31,188 bases of DNA from Rhodothermales bacterium (GCA_035312345.1 DATGCC010000534.1:1-31188), one strand, 5' to 3'; counted from the first letter of the stretch, positions 1,140 to 25,567 are shown. The notes: a model not told the origin generated them from the sequence alone. Translations and numbers: made by a program.

Positions 1140-2642
1140 ATGTCCCCCTCTGATATCGACTCGCAATCCCGCATAGATCAAGCGCTGGCACGCCTGCACG
1201 AAGCGCTGACACCCTATGTGGCCGATGCTATGCAGGAGACTTTCGGTGAGGCATGGGCACAGGCGGCTCAGGAAGGACTTCGCGATCCCTATTTGCAACA
1301 GAAATCATGGGACCTAGAAGCCCTGCTGCTCATCATCACCAACAACTGGGCCTCTGCTTTTCAGGGCCGCCTCGGCGAGGTAGGCAAAATCCTCGTCGGC
1401 GAAGTGCGCACCCTTCAACGATCCGAGGCTCTGCTGAACCTCAACGACGCTTATCGCGCCCTCGACACCATGGCACGCCTGCTTCGTCTGCTCGGCGACG
1501 ACGATCGCGCCGACCACGTCCGCAACGAAGCGCTGGCGATGATGCAGCTTCAGTTTCAACAGCCTAGCCCGTCTGCCCCGCCGCCCGAACCCGCCGACAG
1601 TACGATCCCACCTCCTATTCCAGCGAATCCAACTCCAGAGAACAGTGATAACACGCCATCGGCTGATAGCGCAGACGCTGATGCAACCGAGGAGGCATCA
1701 ACAGAGAACGCAGAAGCTGCCAGCAAACAGGAAGAGGCTGATGCTTCGCAACCCAAAGAAACAACCGATGACGACGGGTGGGGTGACGAGGACGAGCCTG
1801 ACGATGAAGATGAGCCTGACAACCGCGAGCGCGGGCCGGGCCTCTTAGAGAAGGCAGGCGGATGGCTACGGGGTATCCGGTCCAGAAAAGCAGACGACCA
1901 TCTGGCTCCGCTGGAGTTGCGGACGCGCCTGCTGGATGCAGTGGAAGACACCCTGGCAGAACACCGTGCCAAACGCCCGCTCCCCTACGACCGGGTGACG
2001 GTGCACATCCTCGCAACAGACCATCGGCTGTATCATCGATACGATGACGCTCTCAAGGAAATCGAGCCGCCCTTCCAGGTTGCTGTGCCCAACCGCCTCC
2101 ACGATGCCGGCTTCGAGCCGCTCCCCACGCTTTCTGTCAAATACGAAATCCACAAAACGGCTCCCAAAAAGCTGGCGGCCGCCTTCGAGAAGTATGGGCC
2201 GGTCTATGTAGAATATGACCGACACCAGGCCAAGCGACAATCCTCGGCGTGGCTCACCGTCGTTACAGGGGAGGCCGAAGAAAGCGAGTACCGTATTCGA
2301 AGCAACCAGCGCTTCAACGTGGGCCGTTTGAAAGAGGTGCGCGAAGGCAGCTATGGCCACCTCATCCGACGCAACGACATTGCCTTTCTCGGCGATGACA
2401 CCCCCGGCCTGGACGCCGACACCCGCGCCATCAACAACACCGTCTCGCGCAAGCATGCCCGCATCGAATACGACGAAAGCTCCGGCCAGTTTGCGCTACA
2501 CAAAGTCGAGGGCGACACGTTCGTGAGCCGACCCGGACGCGGGGCGCGGGTGCAGGTGCTCTATCAGCCTATCACGCTGGAAGATGGCGACCTGATCTAC
2601 CTCGGTAGCGCCTGCCTCCGCTTCAACACGAGAAAACGGTAA
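1140..2642 (+). CDS. FHA-domain protein: N-terminal Swt1-like HEPN domain, acidic/Pro-rich linker, FhaA/DUF3662-like domain, C-terminal FHA
   Basis: FHA motifs are GR (NVGRLK), SRKH (TVSRKHARI) and LEDGDLIYLG. The N-terminus (ALARLHEALTPYV...WDLEALL...W...F...LG...DAYRALDTMARLL) follows the Swt1-like HEPN pattern. ATG 1140 is preferred over TTG 1128. Confidence 0.85.
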   Translation: MSPSDIDSQSRIDQALARLHEALTPYVADAMQETFGEAWAQAAQEGLRDPYLQQKSWDLEALLLIITNNWASAFQGRLGEVGKILVGEVRTLQRSEALLNLNDAYRALDTMARLLRLLGDDDRADHVRNEALAMMQLQFQQPSPSAPPPEPADSTIPPPIPANPTPENSDNTPSADSADADATEEASTENAEAASKQEEADASQPKETTDDDGWGDEDEPDDEDEPDNRERGPGLLEKAGGWLRGIRSRKADDHLAPLELRTRLLDAVEDTLAEHRAKRPLPYDRVTVHILATDHRLYHRYDDALKEIEPPFQVAVPNRLHDAGFEPLPTLSVKYEIHKTAPKKLAAAFEKYGPVYVEYDRHQAKRQSSAWLTVVTGEAEESEYRIRSNQRFNVGRLKEVREGSYGHLIRRNDIAFLGDDTPGLDADTRAINNTVSRKHARIEYDESSGQFALHKVEGDTFVSRPGRGARVQVLYQPITLEDGDLIYLGSACLRFNTRKR

Positions 2643-2669
2643 AAAGACTGCCGTGCTCAGAGAAAGCCG

Positions 2670-4310
2670 TCAGGGTGCGCCGATGGCCCGTTCCAGCATC
2701 GACTTGTCACCGGTCAATTCCCAGTAGATGAGCGACACCGGGATGACGCCCGCCCGGTTGAAGTCGTCCATGAACGCCCGTAGCTCAAAACGCCCCTCCC
2801 GCTGGCGGGCATATTCGGCGATGAGTTTTTCGATCTCCAACTTGCCGATGACGTAGCTCGTGCCATAGGCCGGTTGCTGCAGGTAGAACTGTTCTTCGTG
2901 CTGGATCGTGCCTCCATCGGCGGGGAGCAAGCCCCAGGGCGTCCACTTTGAGGCAAACTGCGTGGCCTCGTCAAAGGTCATCTCCAGGCCGTGCTGGTAC
3001 AGCCCGCCCAGCCCACGCGCCGCCCGCTGGGCCAGCAGGATCCAGACCAGTTCGCGGGCGCGAGGTCGTTCGTCCAGCAGCCCGGCGTGCATCATCATCT
3101 CTTCCATGCCCGTCGCCATGCCCTCGGCCCGCCCGTCGAAGATGTTGTAGAGCAGCGGCGTGCGACGAATGGGGCTCTCGTGCGGTTCGTCTCGCATCCG
3201 GGCCAGATCGAACCAGTGGTAATGGTGCGTCCGCATCACGATGGGGTCGCGGTAGGTGATCTCAGAGAAGAACCCGCGCAGCCCCTCCGATGGCGTAAAG
3301 CTGCCCATCTGCTCCCGTAGCGCGGCATCCATGTACGGCTTGATCGGGACGATCTCTTCCTCTTCCAGAAACGCCATGTATTCCGTGACAGCCGCATTCA
3401 GCAGGCGGTCGTAGTCTTCGGCATTATCGATCCGAGAGAGCTTTGGCAGATCGCGGTTGCGGTGCTCCTCCAGCCGCAGGGCACTGTGCGCCCGGCTCAA
3501 CTCGCGTTGCATGAGTAGCACCTCCTCCTCCCACGTATAGGGCAGCAGGTGGACCTTCTGAAGGTTCCACGTATAGTTTTCCTTGCCCACACCCGAGGGG
3601 CCTGTCTTTGAGGGAACCTGTGCCTCCAGCCATGCGGCGAACTGTTCAGCGGCCACACTGGCTTCCATCGCCGCAGCCGCCAGATCTGGATGGGTCTCCC
3701 GCACCGACGCCGCAAAAGAAGCAAGCTGCTCGCTTTGCTCGTGGATGCTGCGCGTCCCCGTAACCCACAGGTCGCGGGCATTCCCTGTCAGATTCCGCCG
3801 GGCCTGCTCGAAGACAGCAGCGGCTTTGCGCAGGCGAGCCGCCAGTTGGGAAGCATCTGCATCGGAGAAGGGCCGGGCATAGTTCGGGAGTTCGATAGCG
3901 CCGTGGATGTTTGGCCCTTCGCGCTCTGGCACGTCTGTCGGATAGGGATAGAACCAGACATAAAACGCTGGGTCCCGCGCCCATGGCTTCGTGACACGGT
4001 GATCGAAATCCAGTCCGTTCATCTCGGCCCAGACCAGGTACCAGTCGATCTGCTGAGCAATGGGCCACCCGGTAGTGCCGATGGCGGCTAGGCGACGCTG
4101 CCAATCGGCAAGGTTGCGGTGCTGCCGGGCCATCGCCTCGGCGGTATAATCAGGCACACCGTCAATCATCTCTGGGGCATGAAAGGCCCGCCAGTCAAAA
4201 AACAGATCGACGAGGTCATCGTACGTCGTCGCTTGCTGCGCGCTTACATCGACAGTAAGGATAGAGCAGGCTACCAGAGTGACAAAGCAGAGACAGGAAC
4301 GCGGTGTCAT
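2670..4310 (-). CDS. Secreted DUF885-like protein
   Basis: It has a signal peptide (VSA|Q). EGMATGMEE and SYVIGKLEIEKL...F.LRAF.D resemble the conserved C-terminal DUF885 motifs. Confidence 0.7.
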   Translation of the reverse strand: MTPRSCLCFVTLVACSILTVDVSAQQATTYDDLVDLFFDWRAFHAPEMIDGVPDYTAEAMARQHRNLADWQRRLAAIGTTGWPIAQQIDWYLVWAEMNGLDFDHRVTKPWARDPAFYVWFYPYPTDVPEREGPNIHGAIELPNYARPFSDADASQLAARLRKAAAVFEQARRNLTGNARDLWVTGTRSIHEQSEQLASFAASVRETHPDLAAAAMEASVAAEQFAAWLEAQVPSKTGPSGVGKENYTWNLQKVHLLPYTWEEEVLLMQRELSRAHSALRLEEHRNRDLPKLSRIDNAEDYDRLLNAAVTEYMAFLEEEEIVPIKPYMDAALREQMGSFTPSEGLRGFFSEITYRDPIVMRTHHYHWFDLARMRDEPHESPIRRTPLLYNIFDGRAEGMATGMEEMMMHAGLLDERPRARELVWILLAQRAARGLGGLYQHGLEMTFDEATQFASKWTPWGLLPADGGTIQHEEQFYLQQPAYGTSYVIGKLEIEKLIAEYARQREGRFELRAFMDDFNRAGVIPVSLIYWELTGDKSMLERAIGAP

Positions 4311-20243: not shown

Positions 20244-20627
20244 CTACAGCACCCAGAACGCATCCTCGAAGTGCTCGATCTCCGGCTCTTGACCGCCCTG
20301 TAGTACAATGCTGATCACGTCAAAGCGGCAGGGGGAGCCTTCCAGCTTGCGTTCGTAGAGATAAGCTTTCGCAGCGCGGATCAGATGACGCTTTTTCTCC
20401 TCGGTGACGGCCTCTTCCGGGCGGCCAAAGCCCAGCCCCGTGCGCGTCTTGACCTCGGTAAAAATCAGTTCGCCACCCTGCTCATACTGCGCCGCCGGTT
20501 TAAAACAGACCAGATCCACCTCGGCATGCTCGAAGCGATAGTTGCGCTCCAGGATGGTGTAGCCCTGCGCCTCCAGGTAGGCCGCCGCAATGGCCTCGCC
20601 CTGGTCACCGATGTGCTTGGTGGACAT
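20244..20627 (-). CDS. yraN: YraN (UPF0102) family predicted endonuclease
   Basis: Motifs are G..GE..A..YLE..GY.ILERNYR, EVDL, EVKTR, P.EAVT..K and RFDV. Confidence 0.93.
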   Translation of the reverse strand: MSTKHIGDQGEAIAAAYLEAQGYTILERNYRFEHAEVDLVCFKPAAQYEQGGELIFTEVKTRTGLGFGRPEEAVTEEKKRHLIRAAKAYLYERKLEGSPCRFDVISIVLQGGQEPEIEHFEDAFWVL

Positions 20628-20722: not shown

Positions 20723-21340
20723 CTATTCCGGGCCGCCCTGCATCGATTCGGCGAGGGCGATGAACTGCTTCATCATCGGGATGTTGCGCTTTTGTACAAA
20801 CGGCAGTAGCGATTGGAAGAAGCCATCGAAGACTTCCATCAGTTCCATCAAGTTTTCGATGCGCTCACAGAACTGCTGGTCTTCCGGGCTGAGATCACCG
20901 CAGGCGACATCCTGGTTGTCCGTCAGCACGTCACGCACGTCCTGGAGTTGCTGCGTGATTGGCGCGATCTCGCGGCGCTCCCGCTCACGGATAATCTGCG
21001 CGGTGATGTGCCACACATCTTTCTCAGCCACATAAAAATCTTTCCGCGATCCGGCCTGATGCACCTTGCGGACGAGGTTCCAGTTGACCAGCGAGTGCAG
21101 GTTCATGTTGGCGTTGCCCCGGCTGATCTGCAAGCGCTCCATGATGGCGTCAGTGTCGAGCGGGTCCTCGGCGACGTAGAGCAGGGCGTGGATCTGTGCC
21201 ATGGTGCGGTTGATGCCCCAGGTCGAGGCCATCTCACCCCAGAAGAGAATAAACCGGTCGAGCGCTTCGTGATACTGCTCGCTGACAGCACTGGCTGCCG
21301 CTTCCGTCGTTGCCTCCGTGGTATCGTGTTTATCGGCCAT
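20723..21340 (-). CDS. GbsR/MarR-family transcriptional regulator
   Basis: Motifs are FILFWGEMASTWGINRTMAQIHALL, ISRGNANMNL..LV.W.LV and RKDFY.AEKDVW. The start is set at MADKH (21340). Confidence 0.88.
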   Translation of the reverse strand: MADKHDTTEATTEAAASAVSEQYHEALDRFILFWGEMASTWGINRTMAQIHALLYVAEDPLDTDAIMERLQISRGNANMNLHSLVNWNLVRKVHQAGSRKDFYVAEKDVWHITAQIIRERERREIAPITQQLQDVRDVLTDNQDVACGDLSPEDQQFCERIENLMELMEVFDGFFQSLLPFVQKRNIPMMKQFIALAESMQGGPE

Positions 21341-21552
21341 CGCGGGCGTTGAGGAATCAAACAATCCGAACCATTGCGGGTATGACCTGTGCTGTTCCGT
21401 CCGGTTCCAGCTTCGGTATAAAAAGGAGCCTGCGCTTCTATGATACCAGGAGCCTGGGAAAGAAGAAAATGCCTGCATGCTCCCCTCTTTCTCTTAAAAA
21501 GAGCGTAGATTTATAGCCTTTCAGCCTCTTAGACTCTCATTCTCTCCTCAAC

Positions 21553-22365
21553 GTGTCTTCGCTACTCACCCTCACCACTGATTTCGGCACCCGCGATGCC
21601 TATGTCGCCGCGATGAAGGGGACGATCCTGTCGATTCACCCCGACGTGCGCTTTATCGACATTTCTCACGAAATTACGCCGCAGGACGTGATGGAAGCTG
21701 CGTTCGTGCTGAGCGAGGCGGTGCCCTATTTCCCGGAGGAAACCCTGCACCTCGTCGTGGTTGACCCCGGCGTCGGCACCACACGCCGCCCGGTAGCCTT
21801 GCGGCATGGCGGACATACGTTCGTCGGACCGGACAACGGCCTCTTCGCGTTGCTGCTGGATGGCGAGCCACCGGATGAACTCGTCGTGCTGGATCGATCT
21901 GCGTTCTGGCGCACCTCCGACATCAGCGACACCTTCCATGGTCGAGATGTGTTTGCCCCTGTCGCCGCGCACCTGGCTGCCGGACGTGCGCTCAACGACA
22001 TTGGCACCCCCATCGAGTCGCTGAAACCGTTGCACTGGGCGCTGCCCATCGACGACGACCAGGGCGTGCAAGGCTGGGTAGTGCATGTGGACCGGTTTGG
22101 CAACTGCATCACCAACATTCCGCGCCCGCTCTTCGAGCGCCAGCGCGATGGACGCCCGCTTAAGTGTTTCGTCGGCAACGCGATCCTTGAAGGAGTCCAC
22201 ACGACCTATGGCGATACCGAGGCCGGCGAGCCACTGCTGCTCTTCGGCAGCAGCAACTTCCTGGAGATCGCCGTCAACACCGGGAACGCATCGAACCTGC
22301 TCGACATTCGTAAGGGCACACCGGTTAATGTCCTGTTTAAAGACGTCGAACCTAAGAGCCTATGA
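21553..22365 (+). CDS. SAM hydroxide adenosyltransferase (DUF62; fluorinase/chlorinase superfamily)
   Basis: Motifs are TLTTDFG..D.YV..MKG, VVDPGVGT.R, TFHGRDVFAP, HVDRFGNCITN and LEIAVN.G. It has a GTG start. Confidence 0.92.
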   Translation: MSSLLTLTTDFGTRDAYVAAMKGTILSIHPDVRFIDISHEITPQDVMEAAFVLSEAVPYFPEETLHLVVVDPGVGTTRRPVALRHGGHTFVGPDNGLFALLLDGEPPDELVVLDRSAFWRTSDISDTFHGRDVFAPVAAHLAAGRALNDIGTPIESLKPLHWALPIDDDQGVQGWVVHVDRFGNCITNIPRPLFERQRDGRPLKCFVGNAILEGVHTTYGDTEAGEPLLLFGSSNFLEIAVNTGNASNLLDIRKGTPVNVLFKDVEPKSL

Positions 22366-22439
22366 ATCTAAGGGCCTGAGAGACTAAGAAAGAAAAAGCG
22401 CTGTCTTACCTTCTCGTAATCTCCCAGACTCATAGGCTC
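22356..22439. repeat. Intergenic inverted repeat plus degenerate tandem units
   Basis: GAGCCTATGA (22356-22365) and TCATAGGCTC (22430-22439) form a perfect 10-bp inverted pair. CTAAG units recur with a 16-bp period. CTCCCAGAC occurs twice (22421-22429, 22436-22444). Confidence 0.55.
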
Positions 22440-22448
22440 CCAGACAAA

Positions 22449-23762
22449 ATGCCTGAATCCATCGATCCTCGTCGCGAAGCCCTGCTGGCGCATCTGCAAA
22501 GCGTCTACCTGCTGGCGCGTGTGCTGGCGCAAGATGAGGACCGAGCGACGCAGTTGGTAGAGGACACCTACACGCAGGCCTTCGTGATGCTGCCGCCCCA
22601 CCAGGACGACGACGAGGCCAAGCACGCCCTCCTCCAGTTGCTCACCCAGATCCATCAAGAGCAAACGGCCCTCTACACCGATGGCGATGCGTCTGCCGCC
22701 GTCGTTGACGAGACGCTGCAATCTGTACGTCGTCATCTGGCCGAGGAAATCACGACCCGCACGCTGCCCGTCGTCCTCTCGACCCTTCCGCATCAGCAGC
22801 GCCTCGTGTTGCTGTTGTGCGAAGTGGAAGGCTTTAGCTGCACCGAGGCGGCTCCCTTGCTCCACCTTGATGAAGCGGTCGCCTGCGACGCCCTGACCCA
22901 GGCGCGATCTACACTGAAAAACGATTTCAGGAGTGAGCTAACCAAACGGGAGCAAAACCTGGTTGCCACGAGCCTGCCCAAAGGATGGCTGGGAGGAGCT
23001 CTGAAACAGGCTTTCAGTACGACGTTTGGCACGGTCCCTGCCGCCATACGCTCGACGCTGCTCGAAGCCCAGGTTGCAAAACCAGTAGTGGCTGAGACAC
23101 CGGAGGAAAACAACGCCCCCTTGCCGCCTGAAGATGGCTCGGAAGCCGACCACCTGCCGCGTCTGCCTATACCGCGCGTCCGCACGCTGCCGAAGCCTGA
23201 ACCCAAAGGCCTCTCGCCCGCGATACGGCGCGGGCTGCTGGTGACGCTGCTTATCATTGTCGTCGGGCTGACGGGGTATTTTGCCTCGCGGTCGGTGGAA
23301 GAAACGCCTGAAACCAACCTCATCACCCTCTCGGTAAAGCAGGCTGAAGACCTCACTGCCACCTTTCCCACAAGCAGCCTGCGGCAGGCCGAGGAATACG
23401 TCCGAGGCAATCTAGGCCAGCGCATGACGCTCCCCACCATCGACGGGGCCACCCTCACAGGCGTAGGTGTCCGCAAACCGGCACCCGACGTATCCGTCCC
23501 GGCGTTTTTCTATCAGGATGAACGCGAGGCGGGGCAAACGCTGGTGCTCTACGTGTACAACTACGCCCTGCTGAACCAGTTTGAGGACCGCCTCTCCCTC
23601 GAACCTGATATCCTGCGCCAGATTCAGGAAGAGCAACGCTTCGACCTGCACGACCTCGGTGAACGGCAGGTGCTCGTCTGGCGCAACCGCGATGATATTT
23701 ATGTGGCCGTCACCCCCGGCGACGCCGAGACCCTGCGCCACCGCATCCTTTTCCCTTCTTGA
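22449..23762 (+). CDS. Degenerate ECF sigma-like domain fused to a transmembrane anti-sigma-like domain
   Basis: There is a region-2-like stretch (VYLLARVLAQDEDRATQLVEDTYTQAF) and a region-4-like stretch (LPHQQRLVLLLCEVEGFSCTEAAPLL). A single TM helix (GLLVTLLIIVVGLTGYF) follows. The C-terminal domain (LPTIDGATLTGVG...VLVW.N.DDIYVAVT) resembles extracytoplasmic anti-sigma domains. Confidence 0.7.
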   Translation: MPESIDPRREALLAHLQSVYLLARVLAQDEDRATQLVEDTYTQAFVMLPPHQDDDEAKHALLQLLTQIHQEQTALYTDGDASAAVVDETLQSVRRHLAEEITTRTLPVVLSTLPHQQRLVLLLCEVEGFSCTEAAPLLHLDEAVACDALTQARSTLKNDFRSELTKREQNLVATSLPKGWLGGALKQAFSTTFGTVPAAIRSTLLEAQVAKPVVAETPEENNAPLPPEDGSEADHLPRLPIPRVRTLPKPEPKGLSPAIRRGLLVTLLIIVVGLTGYFASRSVEETPETNLITLSVKQAEDLTATFPTSSLRQAEEYVRGNLGQRMTLPTIDGATLTGVGVRKPAPDVSVPAFFYQDEREAGQTLVLYVYNYALLNQFEDRLSLEPDILRQIQEEQRFDLHDLGERQVLVWRNRDDIYVAVTPGDAETLRHRILFPS

Positions 23763-23776
23763 GTCTAGCTGCTTCC

Positions 23777-24397
23777 TCAGGCAGCCTGCAAAACAGCCTC
23801 AGCAGAAACGATCTGCACCCCGGCCTCCCGCATTTCGTCCCAGGCACGGGCAAGCGAACCCTGCGTATCGATCCCACGTACCGCCTCTTCTACGACGTAC
23901 ACCTCAAAGCCCAGCCTTTTCCCATCAAGCGCTGACCATTTGACACAGAAATCCGTTGCCAGCCCGACCAGATAAAGTGTATCGATAGAACGTTCGCGGA
24001 GGTAGCCTGCCAGCCCGGTGGGGGTCTTTTGATCGTTCTCAAAAAAGGCTGAGTATGAATCGATGGTGCGGCGGAAGCCTTTGCGCAGGATGAGTTCGGC
24101 GCGATCCTGATGCAAGGCAGGATGAAATGCGGCTCCCCTGGTACCTTGAACACAATGATCCGGCCATAAGACCTGCTCGCCATAGGCCAAATCGACGGTG
24201 TCGTAGGGCTGTCTGTCAGCATGGGAAGACGCAAACGAGTGATGCCCTTGCGGATGCCAGTCCTGCGTCAGAATCACATGCTCGAAGGAGGAAGCCAAAC
24301 CATTGACGTGTGGAATGATCGCATCGCCATCGGGTACGGCCAGCGAGCCGCCTGGGCAAAAATCGTTCTGGACGTCAATGACGAGAAGGGCCTTCAT
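23777..24397 (-). CDS. pncA: Nicotinamidase/pyrazinamidase
   Basis: Motifs are ALLVIDVQNDFCPGGSL, TQDWHP..H.SF, LWPDHCVQG, RKG....DSYSAF and GLATDFCV. The start is set at MKALL (24397). Confidence 0.95.
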   Translation of the reverse strand: MKALLVIDVQNDFCPGGSLAVPDGDAIIPHVNGLASSFEHVILTQDWHPQGHHSFASSHADRQPYDTVDLAYGEQVLWPDHCVQGTRGAAFHPALHQDRAELILRKGFRRTIDSYSAFFENDQKTPTGLAGYLRERSIDTLYLVGLATDFCVKWSALDGKRLGFEVYVVEEAVRGIDTQGSLARAWDEMREAGVQIVSAEAVLQAA

Positions 24398-24478
24398 GGT
24401 GAATGGGCGGGAATGTGTTTGATGAGCCTGTGTGCTTTCCCTACGCCCCAACGCCCATCCTGTTTTCTGAGAACTGCT

Positions 24479-25567
24479 TTACAACGACAACACAAGACCA
24501 CCGCCCACTTCAAAGCCAGAGAAATCGCCGAAGGTGTAGATGAAGCGGGATTGCAGCCGTACCGAGGGCGATACGGCTACTTCTGGCAGGAGCCCTGCAT
24601 CGAACAGCGACGCTTTCTCGAAGAGGCTGGTCTCGTCATAGAGACGCGCCTGCCCGAGAAGCCCCACCCACACCATGTTGCCTAATGCTTGCCGATATGC
24701 CAGGCGAATCAGCCCCTGCGCCGGAAGCGTCCGCAACGCCTCGTCGGTGCCACCGGCTCCGGCAGGCAGGCTGCTCTCCGACTGGCCCCGGTAGCGCCCT
24801 ACCACACGTAACTCGTTGACCCCGAAGTATGTCAGCACCTGTCCTGTCGCTACCAGGCGATCGCCTACAGCGAAGACTTCTTCCTCGCCTAACTTGTCGC
24901 TGGTGTACGTTGTGTAGGTTACATCAGCAGAGAGGTTGGTGGTAGGAGCAGCTTTGATGTCCAGACCGCCGGTAATGATAATTTCATCGCCAGGATCATA
25001 ATCTTCTGGCATCTCGGCAAGGGGTCGATAGGCCCCCTTGTACTGGTAGGAAGCCCCCAGCCCCAGCACCACAGTTTCGCTCATCGGAAATGCCCAGACG
25101 AACCCCGGTGCCACATTGAATCCCTGCCCGAAGCCAGGAATACGAAAATCATAGAAATGCTGGCTCAGCAGCAGCGAGGTCTGGAATTCTTGTTCCGTGA
25201 GTTCGCGTTTGCCACTGGGCAGGTTGGCACCGAGGCTCAGCACGAGGCTGCTCGATCCAATCTTCTGCAAGAAGCTCAGGCCCGCCTGCACATCGCTGAC
25301 GCCACTGAGGCTTTCGAGATTATCACCCGTGGCAGACGCCTGCCCGGCTTGCAGGCTGAAGGCTACTTTTTGACCGATCGGCACCAGGATGGAAACCGGC
25401 ACGCTGACTTCAGAGACCTGAAGGCTATCCCTCTCATACGTCTGATATAGCGCATTGACGGAGACCCGTATGGGCTGCCGCTGGCTCGACAGGTACATAC
25501 TTCCCTCCTGGGCGAAGCTCGGTAGCGTCAGCCCCAACAAAAGCAAGATGAACAGCGTCCGTTTCAA
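24479..25567 (-). CDS. Putative outer-membrane beta-barrel protein (COG4313/Phenol_MetA_deg-like)
   Basis: It has a signal peptide (SFA|Q), alternating amphipathic strands and the LSG.SD...G and GANLPSG segments. It starts with TTG after a strong SD. Confidence 0.65.
   Translation of the reverse strand: MKRTLFILLLLGLTLPSFAQEGSMYLSSQRQPIRVSVNALYQTYERDSLQVSEVSVPVSILVPIGQKVAFSLQAGQASATGDNLESLSGVSDVQAGLSFLQKIGSSSLVLSLGANLPSGKRELTEQEFQTSLLLSQHFYDFRIPGFGQGFNVAPGFVWAFPMSETVVLGLGASYQYKGAYRPLAEMPEDYDPGDEIIITGGLDIKAAPTTNLSADVTYTTYTSDKLGEEEVFAVGDRLVATGQVLTYFGVNELRVVGRYRGQSESSLPAGAGGTDEALRTLPAQGLIRLAYRQALGNMVWVGLLGQARLYDETSLFEKASLFDAGLLPEVAVSPSVRLQSRFIYTFGDFSGFEVGGGLVLSL

Follow-up and report, generated by a model that had tools for sequence, protein, structure and literature searches.

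A Rhodothermales membrane protein family with a degenerate sigma-like module, read as a fused sigma/anti-sigma gene pair

What becomes of a sigma factor fold that is joined to a membrane helix and an extracytoplasmic domain in a single chain, with the residues expected of a sigma factor eroded? The question is raised by one open reading frame (ORF) in a 31,188-nucleotide (nt) stretch of DNA from a Rhodothermales bacterium (GCA_035312345.1 DATGCC010000534.1:1-31188), the whole of which is referred to here as the window. The ORF (22449..23762, + strand) is an uninterrupted frame for a single-pass membrane protein of 437 amino acids (aa), P0001. A preliminary description of the locus, made from the sequence alone, saw in it segments resembling an extracytoplasmic function (ECF) sigma factor, an anti-sigma-like helix, a Pro/Glu linker, one transmembrane (TM) helix, and an extracytoplasmic domain. 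It proposed a membrane-tethered sigma mimic, acting as a one-component anti-anti-sigma factor or as a decoy for RNA polymerase (RNAP), rather than a promoter-recognizing sigma factor. On balance, we consider it probable that the protein is a fused and degenerate former sigma/anti-sigma pair with a periplasmic core function and an accessory cytoplasmic module.

The N-terminal module of P0001 is homologous to the sigma2 and sigma4 domains of ECF (group 4) sigma factors and keeps their two-domain fold. A profile built from 20 family members matches M. tuberculosis SigE across sigma2 and sigma4 (E = 2.3e-13), and Bartonella RpoE (E = 5e-12) and SigH (E = 1.5e-11) likewise over both domains. The match to PhyR is weaker (E = 5.7e-6), and since the profile is closer to true ECF sigma factors than to PhyR, the module would have an origin independent of PhyR. 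A Foldseek search with the predicted N-terminal structure returned exclusively ECF sigma factors as top matches (probability 1.0). Curated sigma models gave a different picture. The best Pfam match of P0001 is PhyR_sigma-like, at 24-26 bits, below the gathering threshold (GA) of 27 (9 of the 20 members match this family); Sigma70_r4_2 scores 21.9-23.5 bits, below its GA of 25.7; and TIGR02937 scores 18.4 bits against a cut-off of 42.9. Pfam Sigma70_r2 has no match in P0001 and only one, at E = 0.04, among the 20 members. Many NCBIfam ECF models match residues 13-165 with E values of 1e-10 to 1e-3, all far below their cut-offs, and the window ORF is not among the at least 16 loci of its genome that exceed the Sigma70_r2 cut-off. 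The sigma fold recognized in the preliminary description is therefore clear from profiles and structure, while Sigma70_r2 and every curated cut-off failed.

Structure models built with AlphaFold2 (AF2) on family alignments bear out the order of parts. The mean predicted local distance difference test score (pLDDT) is 82.7 for the N-terminal 222 residues and 85.7 for residues 262-437, the latter with a predicted template modeling score (pTM) of 0.77. Four helices (residues 7-76) form the sigma2-like domain (residues ~8-78; 22470..22682, +), and a long helix (82-112) is predicted in the acidic sigma2-sigma4 linker (79-108; 22683..22772, +), from which the RRRKR-type basic start of canonical ECF linkers is missing. 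The sigma4-like helix-turn-helix (109-165; 22773..22943, +), source of the subthreshold PhyR_sigma-like and Sigma70_r4_2 matches, consists of three helices (115-162). Three additional helices (166-210) occupy residues 166-212 (22944..23084, +), a probable remnant of an anti-sigma domain (ASD) that lacks the H-x3-C-x2-C zinc motif; its conserved positions are E168, L171, W180, L185, and P197, and the previously noted VPAAIRSTLL segment is residues 195-204 within it. A fast-evolving, Pro/Glu-rich cytoplasmic linker (213-258; 23085..23222, +) leads to the single TM helix (~262-284; 23232..23300, +; about 263-281 in the model), which has basic residues on its N side and acidic residues after it, giving an N-in, C-out topology by the positive-inside rule. 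The rest of the protein is a periplasmic alpha/beta domain (285-437; 23301..23759, +). A complex prediction of residues 1-165 with 166-222 scored 0.18 against a mark of 0.32; it speaks neither way and is not used as evidence here. The same continuous frame is present in over 130 cluster representatives drawn from independent assemblies, and a match to the family occurs in 36 of the order's 41 genomes. An assembly error or frameshift joining two genes at the window locus, which would have undone the proposed fusion, is thus ruled out.

To judge how far the module departs from a sigma factor, we aligned the 20 family members with 11 canonical ECF sigma factors of the window's genome. Where canonical proteins have A-E-D-L-v-Q-E-t-F in region 2.2, P0001 has A33-T34-Q35-L-V-E38-D39-T-Y41; the N...D..R of region 2.4 is replaced by Q67...E71..A74; and G-T-V-K-S-R-L-x-R-A-R in the sigma4-like domain has become A143-V-A-C-D-A-L-T-Q-A-R153. 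The region 2.2 Gln is present in 11/11 canonical ECF sigma factors and 1/20 family members (18/20 have Glu instead), and the Asp preceding it in 10/11 and 1/20, respectively. The region 2.4 Asn (10/11) and Arg (11/11) of the canonical proteins are found in none of the 20 members. Net charge falls from +4.5 to -0.8 over regions 2.3-2.4 and from +4.3 to -0.05 in the sigma4.2 recognition helix (range, -3 to +3 in the family), a result that does not depend on the sigma4.2 alignment register, which is uncertain by 1 to 2 residues. The sigma2-like domain of P0001 is neutral to acidic, and in most members the whole core is acidic. Thus, the family shows neither the core-binding motif that an ECF sigma factor should have in region 2.2 (D-x-x-Q-E/D) nor the expected DNA-binding features, namely N...R and a basic tail in region 2.4 together with a basic recognition helix in sigma4.2.

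The same pattern holds in a wider survey of 132 long-form representatives, clustered at 50% identity: the Gln is present in 6/132, the Asn in 0/132, and the Arg in 4/132, never with more than one of the three together. In the recognition helix, surface positions vary among orthologs and buried positions are fixed. Degeneracy is a property of the family and is not local to the window gene. The erosion of conserved ECF residues described earlier is upheld, and orthologs do not keep the canonical residues. The loss of the region 2.3 Trp, also noted then, is real in P0001 (A60) but is not a family trait: the Trp is kept in 63/132 representatives, so its loss is specific to the window's sublineage. 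That the protein is not a promoter-recognizing sigma factor, as first suggested, is well supported by these family-wide losses of residues and charge.

The TM helix and periplasmic domain make up the most conserved portion of the protein. The periplasmic domain has no Pfam family and no sequence match in the PDB, and an exhaustive profile search with it recovered 360 clusters. Foldseek matched its model to RseB/MucB (E = 2.7e-3, probability 1.0), and an all-against-all structural search (VIA) placed the C-terminal domains of MucB and RseB first, with Z scores of 6.8 and 6.6 over 92-94 residues, under the caution line of 8 for that tool. Structures with this fold also turn up in the ESM Atlas, among Balneolota and Ignavibacteriota proteins some 280-290 aa long and within a Planctomycetota zf-HC2 cluster (TM-score, 0.70). 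The domain behaves as a sensor or binding domain of anti-sigma-type proteins. It superposes weakly on the C-terminal domain of RseB/MucB, regulators of the sigmaE/AlgU pathway; there is no sequence similarity to them, including to Pfam MucB_RseB, only one small domain matches, and RseB is soluble and two-domain.

A gene pair from a sister order suggests where the fused protein came from. When 121 genomes of the class were scanned, the periplasmic domain was found outside the order too. In two genomes of the sister order (L038 and L039), a homologous domain (family C-domain profile, E ~1e-30) sits on a protein of 280-289 aa that carries a zf-HC2 anti-sigma domain (36-47 bits; GA, 22.2) with the zinc motif HLAGCRNC. 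The gene for this anti-sigma factor overlaps an upstream ECF sigma gene by 23-56 nt. The sigma factor is fully canonical (Sigma70_r2, 68-70 bits; r4_2, 60-66 bits; motifs DLVQETY, AWLFRILKNNFINRYRRRKR, and GTVRSRLHRGRKLL). On the family N-domain profile these sigma factors score 74 bits, compared with at most 41 bits for the canonical ECF sigma factors of the window's genome; judged by such scores, they are the closest canonical relatives found of the pseudo-sigma module. The pair and the fused protein share the periplasmic domain, the LC[DE]xEG motif in sigma4, and an identical order of parts (sigma, ASD, TM helix, periplasmic domain). The pair differs in being two overlapping genes with a canonical sigma factor, in retaining the H-x3-C-x2-C motif, and in having no DUF62 neighbor (see below). 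Fusion to an anti-sigma factor, as first proposed, thus gains support from homologs of the periplasmic domain on zf-HC2 anti-sigma factors. The single TM helix and extracytoplasmic sensor domain of bona fide zinc-finger (ZAS) anti-sigma factors are present in the family, and the N-terminal H-x3-C-x2-C anti-sigma domain is absent: none of the 20 members matches zf-HC2, and the motif is missing from residues 166-212.

The simplest reading is that the P0001 family is a fused and degenerated sigma/anti-sigma gene pair. The pair would have come first, because re-evolving a canonical sigma factor from a degenerate form is implausible. In this scheme, a canonical ECF sigma/ZAS anti-sigma gene pair would have fused in the Rhodothermales lineage. 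The sigma part would then have retained its two-domain helical fold while losing its core-binding Gln-Glu/Asp (region 2.2), its DNA-binding Asn/Arg (region 2.4) and basic tail, and the basic character of the sigma4.2 recognition helix; the zinc motif would have disappeared from the anti-sigma domain. The result would be an N-in, single-pass inner membrane protein with a constant part, the TM helix and a periplasmic binding-type domain, whose main job in the envelope would be to bind a ligand or partner. The pseudo-sigma and ASD remnant may form a self-contained folded unit, a sigma/anti-sigma complex frozen in cis, kept as an accessory module for protein interaction, stability, or turnover and not for transcriptional output. 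Packing in cis and the absence of RNAP binding are parts of this scheme that we infer.

Losses of the cytoplasmic module point in the same direction. Of the approximately 170 representatives whose C-domain is complete, 132 have the sigma-like module, and in 35 its place is taken by nothing more than a Pro/Glu-rich tail; in a few others, a long N-terminal region is present that no longer matches the module, with further-degenerated N-terminal regions in P0129 and P0160. In a tree of the C-domain under midpoint rooting, 34 of the 35 short forms make up one clade (Shimodaira-Hasegawa-like approximate likelihood ratio test [SH-aLRT], 93) that branches from within the long forms. An independent minimal form, 197-198 aa long and with just 15-22 residues of cytoplasmic tail, is found in genus g21; its closest relatives are long forms (46-50% identity). 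The module has therefore been lost at least twice within the order. As the gene persists in these lineages, its core function would lie in the TM helix and periplasmic part, and the role of the module would be accessory.

Several observations on individual relatives accompany this pattern. We considered whether the short relatives (L013-L018) are unfused anti-sigma factors encoded beside a separate sigma factor and rejected this, as they have no ASD and no neighboring sigma gene; their cytoplasmic part is a Pro/Glu-rich tail or nearly nothing. A word-indexed search for short relatives returned hypothetical proteins only, without zf-HC2. Module-less forms (P0068, P0085, P0111, P0124, P0136, and P0142; L014-L018) share a conserved hydrophobic N terminus, MLLxAAxDP..., and after it an acidic tail, rich in proline, in which "LPSYPR"-like motifs are repeated, which suggests that short linear motifs replaced the module in its cytoplasmic role. 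In Rhodothermales family f4, a 316-aa variant downstream of DUF62 (L043, G003:C2:13400-19400, ORF 2423-3373, +) retains only an HTH-like remnant (...LGFSTQEMADCLNVKEATILRFL...) with no Pfam match in its N-terminal region, and could represent a halfway point in the decay of the module.

Some findings weigh against the fused-pair reading. The post-sigma4 helices show weak homology to an ASD: an hhalign comparison with the sister-order ASD is collinear and not significant (E = 0.026, probability 1.9%), and their ancestry is probable from position. Accordingly, the anti-sigma-like helix of the preliminary description resembles an ASD in position and, weakly, in sequence. The unfused pair occurs in two genomes of one genus (g51) only, and other members of the class carry an anti-sigma-like protein with no adjacent sigma gene. 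The periplasmic fold match falls short of the caution line given above, and the C-domain tree was rooted by midpoint only. A conserved L-V-E-x-T-Y helix persists in region 2.2, and ~44% of members retain one Arg in the recognition helix; given these retained residues, an unusual sigma activity is conceivable, and the loss of RNAP and DNA binding is a prediction from sequence.

Orphan proteins of the class form a separate observation. Relatives of 275-306 aa in other families of the class lie downstream of an RluA-like pseudouridine synthase gene (L040 and L044) or a tetratricopeptide repeat (TPR) protein gene (L041 and L045). They have a cysteine-free, ASD-like N terminus, a TM helix, and the family periplasmic domain, with no adjacent sigma gene. 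They look like orphan anti-sigma-like proteins in two distinct conserved contexts.

We then weighed mimicry of the kind described for PhyR, in which the tethered pseudo-sigma would titrate an anti-sigma factor or occupy the RNAP core under periplasmic control. In its favor, the degenerate sigma-like domain is maintained by selection, PhyR_sigma-like is the best Pfam match of P0001 and is matched by 9 of the 20 members, and at least one canonical ECF sigma factor of the genome (contig C353) has no obvious adjacent anti-sigma gene. However, the protein has neither a receiver domain nor any other switch. A search for NepR (PF18557), with a Caulobacter positive control that worked, found none in the genome, which is 87% complete. 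Nothing close to the module exists in the window's genome as a free paralog (36% identity at best, the generic ECF level), and the conserved neighborhood contains no sigma or anti-sigma gene. In addition, the module is dispensable in whole clades, and the groove that binds an anti-sigma factor should already be filled by the module's own ASD remnant. The NepR search, paralog search, and conserved neighborhood lent the proposed anti-anti-sigma or RNAP-decoy role no support, and we rate it as unlikely. An active tethered mimic of PhyR-independent origin, in which the periplasmic state controls whether the module or its cis anti-sigma remnant captures a free anti-sigma factor, a free ECF sigma factor, or the RNAP core, seems to us slightly less probable again.

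The sigma gene on contig C353 deserves separate mention. It lies at G000 C353:4432-5109 (L046, 1327-2004, +), encodes a canonical 225-aa ECF sigma factor, and is the genome's best match to the sister-order sigma (36%). No co-directional anti-sigma gene lies downstream, where a convergent, methyltransferase-like gene comes next.

Could the module instead be a functionless relic on its way to loss, with only the TM helix and periplasmic part of consequence? It has repeatedly been lost or has decayed further in several lineages, a frameshift splits the two halves in one complete genome, and the module evolves approximately 2 to 3 times faster than the periplasmic domain. We estimated ratios of nonsynonymous to synonymous substitution (dN/dS) between the window gene and its orthologs in L022 (87% aa identity) and L023 (73%); synonymous divergence (dS) to L023 approaches saturation, which makes L022 the safer ortholog to compare. 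The ratios were 0.13-0.22 for the sigma2-like domain, 0.09-0.13 for the sigma4-like domain, 0.10-0.28 for the post-sigma4 helices, 0.27-0.33 for the Pro/Glu linker, and 0.04-0.12 for the periplasmic domain, with 0.05-0.09 for the neighboring DUF62 gene as a control. The sigma-like module is under purifying selection (0.09-0.22), far under neutrality and under the adjacent linker, and is not decaying in the window lineage. Its AF2 model is confident (pLDDT, 82.7), and it is retained in 132 of the ~170 complete representatives. Its most conserved positions are mainly core types (Ala, Leu, Val, Tyr, and Pro), and selection appears to preserve mainly its fold. A relic is accordingly a doubtful account, less probable than mimicry.

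The split gene is in a complete, high-GC genome of the order (L019, G013:C1:2612000-2618200), where the sigma-like and TM/periplasmic halves lie in different reading frames (ORFs 2391-4040, -, and 2521-3876, -), with the shift in the Pro-rich linker. It could be real, a pseudogene, or a sequencing error.

Least probable is a functional, highly divergent sigma factor of the IutY/ECF52 type, held at the membrane and released by regulated proteolysis to an unusual promoter: the architecture fits the hybrids described (PMC8999054, section 3.5.3), the module is under purifying selection, and one relative is labeled "RNA polymerase sigma factor" at its source, but the whole family lacks the canonical core- and DNA-binding residues, the two segments for DNA binding carry no net charge or are acidic, the recognition-helix surface varies among orthologs where conserved promoter recognition would fix it, every curated sigma model failed, and orthologs function without the module.

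We compared the favored reading, a fused and degenerate pair, with systems already described. IutY of Pseudomonas putida (ECF243) is a sigma/anti-sigma hybrid released by Prc/RseP, the ECF48/52/53 hybrids combine a zinc finger with TM helices, and sigma mimicry by PhyR has been described (PMC8999054, PMC7826278). Like IutY and the actinobacterial ECF48, ECF52, and ECF53 proteins (e.g., SCO4117), the Rhodothermales protein joins ECF sigma2-sigma4, an anti-sigma segment, a TM helix, and an extracytoplasmic domain into a single polypeptide (PMC8999054). Unlike those hybrids, which keep a canonical sigma factor that is released by proteolysis and, in the ECF52 type, the zinc finger, the Rhodothermales family has lost sigma residues, basic surfaces, and the zinc motif, and its module is dispensable in sister clades; a canonical, releasable sigma output is not to be expected from it, as the sigma residues are gone. 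Like PhyR, the anti-anti-sigma factor of the alphaproteobacterial general stress response (ECF15 system), the family has an ECF-derived sigma2/sigma4 fold, degenerate and apparently no longer acting as a sigma factor. PhyR is soluble, fused to a receiver, switched by phosphorylation, and binds NepR, whereas the Rhodothermales protein is membrane tethered and fused to its own former anti-sigma factor, has no receiver (no Response_reg match), and has no NepR partner that could be found.

In the gene neighborhood, the co-directional upstream gene (21553..22365, +) encodes an S-adenosylmethionine (SAM) hydroxide adenosyltransferase (DUF62) and lies directly upstream, on the same strand, in 13/13 Rhodothermales loci examined in detail, with gaps ranging from an overlap to 236 nt. 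DUF62 enzymes have been described as (R)-SAM hydrolases that repair epimerized SAM (10.1101/2025.08.29.672840; PMC12120602), and because this is a SAM-repair enzyme, its link with the family gene may be positional and not functional. A divergent MarR-family regulator gene (20723..21478, -) is conserved in close relatives, and a convergent isochorismatase-family (nicotinamidase-like) gene (23777..24451, -) marks the end of the transcription unit. Farther out are two ordinary neighbors: a gene for a small UPF0102/YraN-like protein (20244-20627, -) and a gene for a 362-aa exported protein with a signal-peptide-like N terminus and no Pfam family (24479-25567, -), part of an envelope operon. A promoter and terminator scan of 21300-24000 found nothing exceeding chance.

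An octamer repeat before the start codon was considered as a local regulatory site and rejected, as intergenic copies recur throughout the genome. Tandem arrays of 2-5 units of 8 nt, matching YTAGNCTC (e.g., CTTAGACTC, ATAGGCTC, and CCAGACTC), are intergenic and lie just upstream of start codons. They occur in the window at 21504-21535 and 22420-22445, where they are conserved in L022 and L023, and also on G000 contigs C4, C8, C30, C100, and C212. The genome has 353 such sites, and a 1.65-Mb sample has 62, versus 4-11 in shuffled sequence. A repeat element, a leader, and a spacer feature are candidate explanations.

Sigma/anti-sigma hybrids and sigma mimicry are both known already; what the family would add is a rare example of a fused hybrid with a conserved "dead" sigma half. 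We found no literature description of a hybrid with a conserved pseudo-sigma half, nor of this Rhodothermales family, whose members are annotated as hypothetical proteins apart from the one labeled as a sigma factor. Counts of ECF sigma factors in Rhodothermales could include proteins of this family, and their annotation calls for caution. Were the active-mimic reading true, a sigma/anti-sigma fusion would have given rise to a partner switch that consists of one protein and works independently of phosphorylation. More generally, the living genomes appear to hold a series that runs from an unfused canonical pair, through a fused protein with a degenerate sigma half, to forms without the module. 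The series illustrates how signaling modules are exapted or discarded, and it offers a natural system in which to ask what use a sigma fold has after losing DNA and polymerase binding.

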